3,978 bases of DNA from a virus (IMGVR_UViG_2579778654_000007), one strand, 5' to 3'. Counted from the stretch's first letter, positions 1 to 3,978 are shown. Notes: a model not told the origin generated them from the sequence alone. Program-made: numbers and translations.

Positions 1-1164
1 TTACGCCTTCTTTATATCCTCCATAATTCCACAGTGGGACATATTTGGGACATTATCACCAAAAATGTCGTCTATTTTCCTTGCATGCTCTGTCAAATGA
101 TTAGGCGCAAGGTGAGCATACCTACGAACCATTTCTATGGACTCCCATCCGCCCATTTCCTGAAGCACAGATAATGGGACGCCTGACTGGATCAGCCAGC
201 TTGCCCAGGTGTGTCTGAGGTCATGGAAACGGAAATCTTCAATTCCTGCACGACGACAAGCTGATAGCCATGATGTCTTGCTGTCGATGCGCATCTTCCT
301 GACCGCAGGCGTTGATGTTCCATCTGCTCGCTTAGCCGCCTTGGTATGTACAAACACCCATTTGTGATGCTTGCCTATTTGATCACGCAACACTTTACAG
401 GCGGTATCGTTCAGCGCCACACCAATGGCGCGGTTTGATTTGCTCTCTTCTGGATTCACCCAGGCAACTCGTCGCTGCATGTCGATTTGTTGCCATTCCA
501 GATTTATGATGTTCGACTTTCTCAGACCAGTTGCCAGCGCAAACTTGACGACAGATTTCAGTGGTTCGGGGCACTCATCAATAAGGCGTTTTGCTTCCTC
601 CTTTTCCAGCCATCTGACTCGCTTGTTTCTGACCGCTGGTATCTTGATGACAGGCGCTTTTTCCAGCCACTTCCAGTCGCGTTCTGCAGCACGGAGAATG
701 GCCTTTATCATGGCAAGATGCTTTGCCTTTGTCTGAGTTGATACTGGCTTTGGTTCATAAACAGGCGGTTCTTTACCTTTCCTGATGGCGGCCTGAACTT
801 TCTGTTTCCATATTTCTTTCGTCTTTCTGTTATGCATTCTGCTTACAGCAGAGTAAATCTTTGCCTCCGAGATATCTTTAAGCCTTATACCCTCAAAATG
901 TTCAAGCCAGAACTCAATCCGGCTTTTATCTGAATCGAGAGATTTTTTATCAGCTTTTTCCTCAAGCCATCTTAGGCAGGCCTCTTCAAAAGTGACATCA
1001 GGTAAATCCCCTAGCTTTTCTACTCGCCAGAGTTCTGCTTTTCGCTTGTCGTGCAACTCCTGAGCTTGCCGCTTGTCCTTTGTGCCAAGAGATTCCTTAA
1101 TTCGTTTCCCGCCCGGGAGCGAATACGAGGCATACCATATTTCATTTCTGCGGAAGAGTGACAT
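1..1164 (-). CDS. int: Phage tyrosine integrase (site-specific recombinase, lambdoid/Rac IntR-like), 387 aa, complete
   Basis: Full ORF with ATG at 1164..1162 and TAA at 3..1. A GAGGA Shine-Dalgarno lies at 1175..1171, 6 nt upstream of the ATG. The C-terminal catalytic signature of tyrosine recombinases is present: box [15 protein letters not shown] (H-x-x-R), W in GGWESIEM, and the nucleophile Tyr in VRRYAHL (codon at 118..120). A box I-like [14 protein letters not shown] is also present. Resemblance to Rac-type integrases is from memory, unverified. Confidence 0.93.
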
Positions 1165-1391
1165 TTTCTTTCCTCTGTTATGCCATCACCCGCGCTCACC
1201 TGGACAGTATGCAGCGGAGACTGAAGCGCCGCAATGCAAGCTTGCCGTGTTGTGAGGTAAGGAGATTTTGGCTTGGTTGGATCTTTACGTGTTGCCTGTA
1301 GGCGGCCTGTTCGTATCCAGTTGGTGGCGGTTGGTCTGGATATCTTAAGAAACTGACAGGCCTCATCGAGTGTGAGGCTGTATGGCTCCAT
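1020..1391 (-). CDS. xis: Excisionase / AlpA-type HTH recombination directionality factor; the ORF runs 123 aa and its C-terminal part overlaps int
   Basis: ATG at 1391..1389 is preceded by GGTGA (1400..1396) and overlaps the upstream stop as TAATG. The N-terminal approx. 60 aa ([35 protein letters not shown]...) look like a small excisionase-type helix-turn-helix. The gene sits immediately upstream of int, as expected for xis. The ORF-track start at 1475 was rejected (see noticed_but_rejected). The 3' end overlaps int by 145 nt (1020-1164) in another frame. Confidence 0.7.
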
Positions 1392-1696
1392 TATTTCACC
1401 TCTTGCTGTGTCATTGTTGAAAAATGGATACCAGCTCGTTGCTGCCAGACGATCCAACCGAGAGTCATATCCCATGCCATGTATTCGTTATCGCCGTTTT
1501 TTACTCTCCGACGATCTACTAAGTCACCGAAACGCTTTTCCATGAATAATTCATAGGCTTCGCGTTCATCTGGCTCTACTTCCAGAGATACGAGTGCGAT
1601 TTCATAAGCACGGCGCTCAATATCGTCTCGAACCTCTAGGCTGCTGATTCGTTCTTTGATTTCTTTAATCAGTTCTTTATTGGTAAATGTGGTCAT
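1391..1696 (-). CDS. yfdT: Small phage protein of unknown function (YfdT-like), 101 aa
   Basis: ORF with ATG at 1696..1694 and TAA at 1393..1391. The start overlaps the upstream gene's stop (TAATG), with GGAG-like sequence just upstream. Protein is acidic and helical (MTTFTNKELIKEIKERISSLEVRDDIERRAYEIALVSLEVEPDEREAYELF...). The symbol is assigned by synteny and length from memory of the E. coli CPS-53 yfdQRST cluster; treat as tentative. Confidence 0.7.
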   Translation of the reverse strand: MTTFTNKELIKEIKERISSLEVRDDIERRAYEIALVSLEVEPDEREAYELFMEKRFGDLVDRRRVKNGDNEYMAWDMTLGWIVWQQRAGIHFSTMTQQEVK

Positions 1697-2058
1697 TATG
1701 CTCCAGCCTCCGGTGCTTTTGGCATTACTGCCCAGTGAGTGATATTGACGTTTTCAAGGTCCCCGACCTGAAATGTCCACTGCCATTCTCCGGTTTCTTT
1801 TTGTCCCCAGGTGTACCAGAGAGAACGCCAGCCAATCAGCCAGCCTTCTCCATTAGCATCAAATAACAGAACACTTTCATTTGCTGGTGGCAGTTCAGCT
1901 GACACTGGTATTATTTTGTTTTCCAGTGCCGCACATTTAGCTTCAAGCGCGTCGAATTTACGTAACAGGTACTCAGCATTTGTTTCGTTCACTTTCAGAT
2001 CTCGCGGTACACATTTCCCGCGAAGAAACCCTTCCATTTCGAAAACATTCATGCGCAT
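1696..2058 (-). CDS. yfdS: DUF551-family phage protein (YfdS-like), 120 aa
   Basis: ORF with ATG at 2058..2056 (an alternative ATG at 2052..2050 gives an ATGA overlap with the upstream stop). GGAG lies 8 nt upstream. The C-terminal half (ELPPANESVLLFDANGEGWLIGW...WQWTFQVGDLENVNITHWAVMPKAPE) matches the pattern I recall for DUF551 (conserved W/G residues and a THW..MP motif). Function unknown. Confidence 0.78.
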   Translation of the reverse strand: MRMNVFEMEGFLRGKCVPRDLKVNETNAEYLLRKFDALEAKCAALENKIIPVSAELPPANESVLLFDANGEGWLIGWRSLWYTWGQKETGEWQWTFQVGDLENVNITHWAVMPKAPEAGA

Positions 2059-2585
2059 TTGCGTAACTCCGATAAATCGTTAAAACGTTCCATAAACATC
2101 CCGTAGGCATGACCCGGTGCCAGTGGAATCACGTTGAACATCTCTGTTGCCGGGATGCCTTCCAGTACAGGCCAGAAAGAGCCATCATCAAGCCCGAGAT
2201 CGCGGCGTTCGGTTGCCAGCATGATGAGATCGGCATATTTCACGGGTGTACTCATAACTGGGGGTAACCCGTATTTCTCACGGATTACGGCGTCTATTTT
2301 TTCTTCCATCCGTTTATAGTCAGGAAGAAGGCGTTTCAGTGGTGCGGGAATGTCCTGGCAATACGCTTCTGTTGCATCATGCATTAACGCTTCAAAAGCA
2401 AATTCCTGCGGCACCAGCTGGCTGCAAAGAACCGCATGTTGGGCGACGCTGTAGAAGTGCGAAAGATGACCGGCAAAGCGACAGATATTTGAAAGGGAAA
2501 CCGCGATATCGTTAATATCGATGTCGTCTTTATTTATCTTGTCATAATAAAAATGCTTCCCGGAAAAAGTTTTAATAAATGACAT
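2049..2585 (-). CDS. yfdR: HD-domain metal-dependent phosphohydrolase (5'-deoxynucleotidase-like, YfdR-like), 178 aa, full-length copy
   Basis: ATG at 2585..2583 is preceded by GGAG (GTGGAGAACAAAATG); stop TGA at 2051..2049. HD-superfamily motif residues are visible: [25 protein letters not shown] and downstream acidic residues. The ORF-track version (to 2666) begins at a TTG with no RBS, so the shorter ATG start is preferred. The symbol is from memory of the 178-aa CPS-53 YfdR. Confidence 0.85.
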   Translation of the reverse strand: MSFIKTFSGKHFYYDKINKDDIDINDIAVSLSNICRFAGHLSHFYSVAQHAVLCSQLVPQEFAFEALMHDATEAYCQDIPAPLKRLLPDYKRMEEKIDAVIREKYGLPPVMSTPVKYADLIMLATERRDLGLDDGSFWPVLEGIPATEMFNVIPLAPGHAYGMFMERFNDLSELRKCA

Positions 2586-2678
2586 TTTGTTCTCCACGTA
2601 TATGCGCTGCACCGCGCTGAATTCGGGTAAAAGGAAGCCCTCGCTATCAGGCGATTGTTGAGTCAATTACGTTTCCAT

Positions 2679-2700
2679 AAATGCCCCCGCAGGGGCATTT
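2679..2700. other. Perfect 9-bp inverted repeat (stem-loop) in the YfdQ/HD-gene intergenic region, copy 1
   Basis: aaatgcccc-cgca-ggggcattt: 9-bp arms, 4-nt loop, GC-rich core. It lies 12 nt downstream of the YfdQ-fragment stop on the minus strand and is followed on that strand by TTTAT. It may be a weak intrinsic terminator or attenuator, or an RNA processing or protein-binding hairpin. Confidence 0.4.
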
Positions 2701-2712
2701 GCAGCAATGAAA

Positions 2713-2933
2713 TCAGGCGGTGAAAGTACCAATAAAGGTTTCTACTTTGCTGTCTTTGAATTTCTCAACAAGCAGATCACGAAATTCGTTAGCCATTTCT
2801 TCCTGCACCGCTTCCAGCTGAATAATGCGCAGAACCAGTACAGGACGATCGCCAGTGATAATGCTGAGGCGTAATTTAAACGGACGTTCTTTCAGACCTT
2901 CAAACGGAACGCATTTAAATTCAAATGCCACTG
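2713..2933 (-). pseudogene. Orphan 3' fragment of the YfdQ-like gene created by the duplication (C-terminal 72-73 codons, no native start)
   Basis: Its translation is identical to the last 72 aa of the gene at 3508-3966 (..[71 protein letters not shown]). The ORF-track start is a GTG that encodes an internal Val in the intact gene. No RBS is evident. Confidence 0.65.
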
Positions 2934-3380
2934 CATCTCTGTTGCCGGGATGCCTTCCAGTACAGGCCAGAAAGAGCCATCATCAAGCCCGAGATCGCGG
3001 CGTTCGGTTGCCAGCATGATGAGATCGGCATATTTCACGGGTGTACTCATAACTGGGGGTAACCCGTATTTCTCACGGATTACGGCGTCTATTTTTTCTT
3101 CCATCCGTTTATAGTCAGGAAGAAGGCGTTTCAGTGGTGCGGGAATGTCCTGGCAATACGCTTCTGTTGCATCATGCATTAACGCTTCAAAAGCAAATTC
3201 CTGCGGCACCAGCTGGCTGCAAAGAACCGCATGTTGGGCGACGCTGTAGAAGTGCGAAAGATGACCGGCAAAGCGACAGATATTTGAAAGGGAAACCGCG
3301 ATATCGTTAATCACGATGTCGTTTTTATTTATCTTGTCATAATAAAAATGCTTCCCGGAAAAAGTTTTAATAAATGACAT
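2892..3380 (-). CDS. Truncated, chimeric second copy of the HD-domain phosphohydrolase gene (N-terminal 149 aa of the YfdR-like protein plus a 13-aa out-of-frame tail); possibly a pseudogene
   Basis: ATG at 3380..3378 has the same GGAG RBS as copy 1. The protein matches the full copy through ...GIPATEM except for 2 substitutions (KDDIDIND vs KNDIVIND). At the duplication junction it reads into the YfdQ-like 3' sequence in a different frame ([13 protein letters not shown], stop at 2894..2892). The HD motif residues are retained; the last 29 residues of the full-length protein are lost. Confidence 0.6.
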
Positions 3381-3728
3381 TTTGTTCTCCACGTATATGC
3401 ACTGCACCGCGCTGAATTCTGGTAAAAGGAAGCCCTCACCATCCGGTGATTATTGAGTTAATTACGTTTCCATAAATGCCCCCGCAGGGGCATTTGCAGT
3501 AATGAAATCAGGCGGTGAAAGTACCAATAAAGGTTTCTACTTTGCTGTCTTTGAATTTCTCAACAAGCAGATCACGAAATTCGTTAGCCATTTCTTCCTG
3601 CACCGCTTCCAGCTGAATAATGCGCAGAACCAGTACAGGACGATCGCCAGTGATAATGCTGAGGCGTAATTTAAACGGACGTTCTTTCAGACCTTCAAAC
3701 GGAACGCATTTAAATTCAAATGCCACTG
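2934..3728. repeat. Tandem direct duplication, copy 2 (795 bp)
   Basis: Head-to-tail with copy 1; the junction lies between 2933 and 2934. The unique flanks differ on both sides: ...acgttgaa|catctctg at the left of copy 1, and ...tgccactg|gcataatg at the right of copy 2. Confidence 0.9.
3474..3495. other. Same 9-bp inverted repeat stem-loop, copy 2 (downstream of the intact YfdQ-like stop codon)
   Basis: Identical hairpin sequence at offset +795; it is conserved even though nine nearby intergenic positions differ between the copies. Confidence 0.4.
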
Positions 3729-3978
3729 GCATAATGTCTTTGGTCTTCGCTTCGACAGACTCCATCAGGGAGCGTTTGCCGCTGAAGTCATTATCTTCAA
3801 AATCAGCGGTCTGGTTTGCTTCAATCGTGATTTTACGGACTGCCGCAGCCGCTTTTGTTGCTTGAATGGCGTCACCATTAGCATCAAAGCCCACAAGGTA
3901 GTCGGCCCAGTCTTCGATCCATTCTGCCAGTGACTTCTGGGAGTTACGCTCGCCGTTAACAGACAACAGAGCAGAGAA
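3508..3978 (-). CDS. yfdQ: Phage protein of unknown function (YfdQ-like), C-terminal part; the 5' end lies beyond the window edge
   Basis: ORF with TGA at 3510..3508. The reading frame stays open upstream of the first in-window ATG (3966) through to base 3978 (..[24 protein letters not shown]..), so the gene probably starts outside the window. Its position upstream of the yfdR/yfdS/yfdT-like genes fits the CPS-53 yfdQRST order as I recall it; the family assignment (DUF2303?) is unverified. Confidence 0.7.

Follow-up and report, generated by a model that had tools for sequence, protein, structure and literature searches.

A common enterobacterial prophage gene, yfdR, codes for a predicted HD-superfamily phosphohydrolase and proposed DnaA-binding brake on host replication initiation

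Introduction

What does a phage gain from YfdR and its companions YfdQ, YfdS and YfdT, and is the catalytic site of YfdR or its contact with DnaA the selected activity? This long-standing question is raised again by a stretch of viral DNA of 3,978 nucleotides (IMGVR_UViG_2579778654_000007, hereafter the window), for which a preliminary description made without database searches had pointed to an HD-domain phosphohydrolase in a small accessory operon beside the integrase gene. That description called the module functionally uncharacterised, which does not hold, since DnaA binding and inhibition of initiation by YfdR have already been studied (PMC4776307).

The yfdQ-yfdR-yfdS-yfdT cluster of E. 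coli K-12 was isolated as a multicopy suppressor of hda-185 (Noguchi & Katayama 2016, Front Microbiol, PMC4776307). When yfdQRT or yfdQRS is supplied in multicopy, oriC initiation is inhibited in several backgrounds, the wild type among them, and in vitro the replication of oriC is inhibited by extracts oversupplied with YfdQRST (PMC4776307). Among the proteins of the cluster only YfdR is pulled down by DnaA; with purified protein the binding is direct, and its site lies in DnaA domains I-II and depends on Phe46, in a patch shared with DiaA and DnaB; YfdR alone inhibits either interaction only moderately (PMC4776307). The two statements of the preliminary description, that YfdR binds DnaA and that overexpression of the four genes inhibits replication initiation, are both found in that work. 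In K-12, deletion of yfdQRST gave no phenotype under normal growth, and the authors allowed that the overexpression effect might be an artefact; they also recognised orf29-31 of phage SfV as homologues and proposed, with lambda P as the analogue, that the genes served the ancestral phage in its lytic growth (PMC4776307). A 2025 eLife paper again presents YfdR as a prophage protein that competes with DnaB for domain I of DnaA (PMC12122000). K-12 YfdR is further reported, as far as the work is cited in PMC4776307, to have a nucleotide phosphatase activity with an affinity for nucleotides much lower than that of YfbR. The DnaA-binding phenotype has been published already, as have the gene itself, its annotation and its fold class.

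Results

Identity of the gene

The yfdR gene of the window is located at 2049..2585 on the minus strand and codes, at full length, for an HD-superfamily phosphohydrolase of 178 aa. The product is identical to K-12 YfdR (b2361) at 177 of 178 residues, over the full length and without gaps, which agrees with the CPS-53 homologue named in the preliminary description; the sole difference, V23D, falls at a variable N-terminal position. The start is an ATG at 2585-2583, with GGAG as ribosome-binding site 7 nt upstream; the longest possible ORF begins at a TTG at 2666, and the K-12 and PGAP annotations give the 178-aa form. Judged by its sequence, the flagged gene is yfdR, known and very common in enterobacterial lambdoid prophages of the SfV / CPS-53 / PhiR49-like kind. 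DNA at least 90% identical to yfdR was found in 2971 of 5426 complete E. coli genomes. A single genome has up to four copies, and many of the copies are 100% identical and carry the PGAP product name '5'-deoxynucleotidase'. The yfdR of phage PhiR49_1, deposited as a complete phage genome, also has 100% DNA identity to the window copy.

Compared with K-12 YfdR from the cryptic prophage CPS-53/KplE1, the window protein has the same length, the same flanking yfdQ, yfdS and yfdT and the same PGAP product name. The K-12 module occupies the torI end of CPS-53, which is integrated at argW, whereas in the window xis and int follow directly and, in the matching complete genomes, the prophage sits at argU. 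A truncated second yfdR lies upstream in the window and not in K-12.

The yfdQ-yfdR-yfdS-yfdT operon

Every real gene of the window is on the minus strand. Next to yfdR are yfdS (1696..2058, minus), coding for a DUF551 protein of 120 aa with 119/120 identity to K-12 YfdS (PF04448, 22.1 bits for a cut-off of 22; PHROG 583), and yfdT (1391..1696, minus), coding for a protein of 101 aa with 98/101 identity to K-12 YfdT (PHROG 660). They are followed on the same strand by xis, an excisionase gene with an HTH_17 domain (1020..1475 in its long form, 1020..1391 in its short form; PF12728, E 1.2e-8; PHROG 2907, E 6.8e-46 over the whole profile), and by int (1..1164, minus), coding for a tyrosine integrase of 387 aa (PF00589, E 5.5e-47), as expected from the int-proximal position proposed for the module. 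On the other side of yfdR only the 3' part of yfdQ is present (3508..3978, minus; DUF2303, PF10065, E 1.1e-44), with an ORF of 152 aa at 3508-3966; its 5' part is outside the window, whose end is 1 nt short of the end of the draft contig.

The stop of yfdR and the start of yfdS overlap by 10 nt, a TAATG overlap is present at both yfdS/yfdT and yfdT/xis (with the short xis form, start 1391), and the start of int is overlapped by xis over 145 nt. Because the stops and starts overlap at yfdR/yfdS, yfdS/yfdT and yfdT/xis, the earlier picture of a compact, co-transcribed module is reasonable. The xis of SfV is annotated at the place corresponding to that of the window. In strain 2014C-4587, which carries an identical locus, PGAP gives only a 66-nt 'incomplete' HTH pseudogene at the xis position, probably an annotation miss.

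The intergenic spacer between yfdQ and yfdR (2586..2712, minus) contains a GC-rich hairpin with a 9-bp stem, AAATGCCCC-CGCA-GGGGCATTT, found directly after the yfdQ stop at 2679-2700 and again at 3474-3495. It has no T-run and was absent from the terminator-like sites of a terminator scan. The fold of the spacer (-40.9 kcal/mol, z -1.7) was not significant, and an Rfam search at a permissive E-value returned nothing in the spacer. The hairpin might be a processing or stability element.

These genes make up the early leftward operon of a temperate phage of the lambdoid type, which runs from the repressor region through yfdP-yfdQ-yfdR-yfdS-yfdT to xis and int. An unduplicated version of the window stretch, 3183 bp long, is present in complete E. 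coli genomes with 99.6-99.7% identity; in the genome inspected (H2), int abuts tRNA-Arg (argU) beside fimZ, and a LexA-family phage repressor gene is located upstream of the module. The 3183-bp stretch is also present in the Escherichia phages PhiR49_1, PhiR29 and Kati. In the serotype-converting Shigella phage SfV the order is cI, terminators, orf33, orf32, orf31 (yfdQ), orf30 (yfdR), orf29, orf28, xis and int, so that the window and SfV, as well as SfIV with its homologue, share the operon orf31-orf30-orf29-orf28-xis-int downstream of cI. The DNA of SfV and SfIV is about 94.6% identical to the window from position 896 onward, without the duplication; because the match starts only at this position, their integrase is different from that of the window.

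HD fold and active site of YfdR

The HD superfamily of metal-dependent phosphohydrolases is said to have been delineated by Aravind and Koonin in 1998. YfdR contains the motifs H40-x-x-H43 and H69-D70, in line with the H..H and HD motifs given in the preliminary description. In alignments of 43 close relatives and of 21 distant ones, the latter down to 39% identity, each of the predicted metal ligands H50, H69, D70 and D119 is either invariant or conserved in at least 90% of the sequences, and the His/Asp ligands, whose loss would have spoken against the assignment, are thus retained. H50 is predicted as the first metal ligand from the SVAQH / NVSEH motif similarity and from its invariance. 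Among the 21 distant relatives D78 is invariant and E73 at least 90% conserved. The HD pair of YfdR aligns with H68-D69 of YfbR, and E73 and D78 with E72 and D77 of YfbR in the motif HDAxExxxxD. In YfbR, Zimmerman is said to have found in 2008 that E72 is catalytic and D77 binds the ribose; the R18-W19 pair is reportedly responsible for phosphate binding and deoxyribose selectivity. An invariant R36-F37 is located 14 residues before H50 in YfdR, and R18 of YfbR 15 residues before H33; these segments are left unaligned by MAFFT and by hhalign, and we infer that R36-F37 could be the counterpart of R18-W19.

The structural model of YfdR suggests a single-domain, all-alpha HD fold with a C-terminal helix at 159-177. 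YfdR matched PHROG 318, 'deoxyribonucleoside 5' monophosphate phosphatase', with E 5e-110, and PDB 2gz4 with E 3.7e-14 as a single sequence and E 6.8e-18 as a 43-sequence profile. Alignment of a diverse 21-sequence profile to YfbR by hhalign gave 94% probability across the HDAxExxxxDxPxPxK core. The match to the Atu1052 (2gz4)-like HD clade is significant and full-length, in sequence and in structure. With a real ORF, intact ligands and these PHROG 318, 2gz4 and YfbR profile matches, the reading of 2049-2585 as an HD-domain phosphohydrolase gene is confirmed, and YfdR is, on its residues and profiles, a metal-dependent phosphohydrolase of the HD superfamily whose H...HD...D site is complete.

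The Pfam comparison suggested in the preliminary description gave a more divided answer. The match to PF12917 (YfbR-like) has a significant E-value of 2.9e-5, but its 24.3 bits are below the gathering score of 25.9, and PF13023 (HD_3) reached 17.0 bits, below 22.5; the NCBIfam YfbR equivalog model NF003009 gave 19.9 bits, far below 122. With scores under the cut-offs of all three families, YfdR does not count as a YfbR equivalog; that it functions in the manner of YfbR is nonetheless plausible.

YfdR belongs to the large Atu1052/YfdR clade; of the characterised proteins, the YfbR-type 5'-deoxynucleotidases are closest to it in structure. Atu1052 of Agrobacterium tumefaciens is a chromosomal alphaproteobacterial protein about 20 residues longer than YfdR, and its structure (2gz4) is a structural-genomics entry titled protein of unknown function. 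Compared with the E. coli 5'-deoxynucleotidase YfbR (PDB 2paq/2par), YfdR is predicted by its model to carry 45 additional residues at the N-terminus that include two short strands, and the spacing from the first His to the HD pair is shorter. The nearest characterised folds, YfbR, HDDC2, DatZ and OxsA, are nucleotide mono- and triphosphate hydrolases.

Distribution of the family

The wider YfdR family comprises 22,939 cluster representatives at 50% identity (E up to 1e-3). By tblastn it was found in 333 deposited phage records, among them virulent and jumbo phages that infect Caulobacter, Bacillus, Vibrio, Rhizobium and Stenotrophomonas, and the phage proteins have confident structural matches in BFVD. 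The dNMP phosphatase of the phage T5 type was considered as a possible member of the family, and no T5-like record was present among the 60 matches listed, drawn across the ranking of the 333.

Scans of IMG/VR for distant relatives gave mostly near-identical E. coli loci. Co-occurrence of the four genes, which the preliminary description had proposed to follow across prophages, was seen in part: the core seen most often at 80 near-identical IMG/VR loci is yfdP-yfdQ-yfdR, with its order kept in most, but yfdS and yfdT are mosaic, and none of the six distant viral loci obtained, too few for statistics, has a YfdQ, YfdS or YfdT neighbour. The neighbours at these six loci are ParB-like, Toprim, methylase and DUF5131 genes.

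In a second prophage of E. coli 13TMH22 (L166:53-1648), some 2 kb lie between yfdP-yfdQ-yfdR and a gene with the annotation 'anti-phage dCTP deaminase', which places a nucleotide-pool defence gene close to that of a nucleotide phosphatase.

Role of YfdR and alternative explanations

We consider it very probable that this gene is the yfdR of an early leftward operon, that its product is an HD phosphohydrolase and that this product acts as a DnaA-binding brake on host initiation. The operon would be transcribed early after prophage induction or infection; YfdR would then occupy the patch on DnaA domain I and damp new rounds of initiation on the host chromosome, and the HD site would keep a low-affinity (d)NMP phosphatase activity. 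Binding of DnaA domain I by the V23D allele of the window is expected by analogy with the K-12 protein, one residue apart, and its phosphatase activity would likewise be that of the K-12 protein as reported in the literature cited above.

DiaA, B. subtilis SirA and Dps are functional analogues of YfdR that bind DnaA domain I with unrelated folds. Lambda P, like YfdR a phage inhibitor of DnaA, binds domain III and has an unrelated fold as well (PMC4776307). In contrast to the DnaA regulators DiaA, SirA, Dps and lambda P, the effect of YfdR has been seen only upon oversupply together with its partner proteins. This is the first of the points against the brake: the inhibition phenotype comes from multicopy or overexpression alone, deletion of yfdQRST being without effect (PMC4776307), and YfdR by itself acts only moderately against the interactions of DnaA with DiaA and DnaB. 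The position of YfdR under the curated cut-offs of the Pfam and NCBIfam YfbR models also counts against the reading as a whole, as does the absence of the partners YfdQ, YfdS and YfdT near the six distant viral relatives. From this absence, a role directed at DnaA, if there is one, may be confined to the enterobacterial module, and the ancestral role may be enzymatic.

The last point leads to the main rival, in which YfdR remodels the nucleotide pool during lytic growth and DnaA binding is a side effect of overexpression; its substrates would be (d)NMPs released from host nucleic acid or arising from pool imbalance. We regard it as a tentative alternative. The conservation of the catalytic site across a huge family argues for it, and so does the kind of enzyme found among the nearest folds, together with the artefact conceded by the authors of PMC4776307. 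The presence of the family, without YfdQ, YfdS and YfdT, in virulent and jumbo phages that infect Caulobacter, Bacillus, Vibrio and Rhizobium points the same way, with six loci that are not decisive. On the other hand, the DnaA binding is direct with purified protein and needs a specific residue, Phe46. In an engineered strain, moreover, deletion of yfdR left CMP accumulation unaffected, with no gain in CMP yield, so YfdR contributes little to nucleotide turnover in the uninduced lysogen.

The lack of a phenotype in the K-12 deletion under normal growth could mean that yfdR is a passive, functionless remnant in the lysogen and that the duplication of the window reflects decay. Rearranged, fused or truncated forms of yfdQ/yfdR are numerous in public data, and these, as well as the truncated yfdR copy in the window itself, are in keeping with this. 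We find it improbable: the full-length yfdR is intact and 100% identical in DNA to many genomes and to PhiR49_1, its catalytic residues are conserved to about 39-40% identity, and the order yfdP-yfdQ-yfdR is maintained in most of 80 viral contigs.

A counter-defence role, in which the HD site destroys a nucleotide immune signal or trigger (cyclic nucleotides, m6-dAMP) or offsets defences that target the pool, is very improbable. The closest structures are mono- and triphosphate hydrolases and not HD-GYP or PgpH phosphodiesterases, and no PADLOC family matched YfdR, YfdS, YfdT or YfdQ at E up to 0.01, which counts against it; the speculation in the preliminary description that nucleotide-based signals are degraded finds no support as regards cyclic signals. 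Literature searches on YfdR, Atu1052 and HD-domain anti-defence retrieved no paper that ties YfdR or its clade to anti-defence. Slighter still is the chance that the HD site of the YfdR family removes dNMP danger signals (m6-dAMP, the trigger of PUA-Cal-HAD) or buffers the pool against dCTP deaminase, with DnaA binding secondary or specific to enterobacteria, and a much weaker variant would make the truncated YfdR' a modulator of the full-length protein.

For the brake on initiation as for its rivals, phages deposited as complete genomes with the identical gene (PhiR49_1, Kati, SfV) make the question testable, and the window adds no new lever.

A tandem duplication and a truncated yfdR'

The only non-routine element of the window is a putative tandem duplication, unique in the collections searched. 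This duplication of 795 bp, with a truncated yfdR' 795 bp upstream of yfdR, had gone unmentioned in the preliminary description. Copy A (2139..2933, 795 bp) consists of yfdR codons 1-149, the spacer and the last 72 codons of yfdQ, and copy B (2934..3728, 795 bp) follows head-to-tail, with 12 mismatches in 795 in a comparison at offset 795. At the junction, yfdR codon 149 is joined to the last 72 yfdQ codons without microhomology (...AAATGCCACTG|CATCTCTGTTGCC...). The breakpoint on the yfdQ side is the centre of a perfect 13-nt palindrome, ATGCCACTGGCAT (3720-3732), and a hairpin at this place may have promoted the illegitimate join.

The truncated yfdR' (2892..3380, minus) codes for 162 aa with the same Pfam match as the full copy: residues 1-149 (with D20N and V23 relative to the full copy) and a 13-aa out-of-frame tail. 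YfdR' retains H50, H69, D70 and D119, and in terms of the structural model it would lack the C-terminal helix 159-177. The duplicated 3' fragment 'yfdQ (2713..2931, minus) comprises the last 72 codons of DUF2303 and matches PF10065 at profile positions 203-269 of 269 (E 3.3e-18); it probably does not represent a gene. A match to the STnc310 sRNA inside yfdR' was rejected as chance-level in Rfam (22.9 bits versus 40).

The junction was not found in 5426 complete E. coli genomes, GTDB representatives, JGI metagenome contigs or IMG/VR, and the exact 162-aa YfdR' protein is on record for one contig only (GCA_000511505.1, AYKB01000039.1), which ends 1 nt past the window. Outside the 12 variant sites the window has 100% identity to the unduplicated locus of strain 2014C-4587. 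These sites are 2517, 2518 and 2528 (and +795) and nine at 2606-2705 (and +795). At each of the 12, one copy has the resident allele and the other an allele that belongs to another yfdPQR prophage, co-resident in the nearest complete genomes (e.g. 13TMH22); the foreign alleles are in copy B at the three sites of the yfdR 5' end and in copy A at the nine spacer sites.

Such a pattern of alleles is characteristic of either short gene-conversion tracts or a chimeric assembly. It is possible that a real duplication was followed by short gene-conversion tracts from the paralogous prophage, and the junction, which is non-homologous, favours its presence in some molecule. Alternatively, reads of two or three near-identical units may have been misthreaded near the contig break, and the position at a contig end together with the patchwork of alleles urges caution. 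If not an artefact, the duplication is a small example of illegitimate recombination and gene conversion between co-resident prophages.

The yfdQ-yfdR boundary appears rearrangement-prone from the variant forms present in public data. These include fusions of the YfdQ N-terminus to YfdR through deletions, an internal 33-residue duplication in YfdR and a YfdR::YfdS read-through fusion, and a frameshifted YfdR form of 151 aa is present in 120 sequences. Some YfdR relatives of 350-410 aa are tandem double-HD proteins with two YfdR-like stretches.
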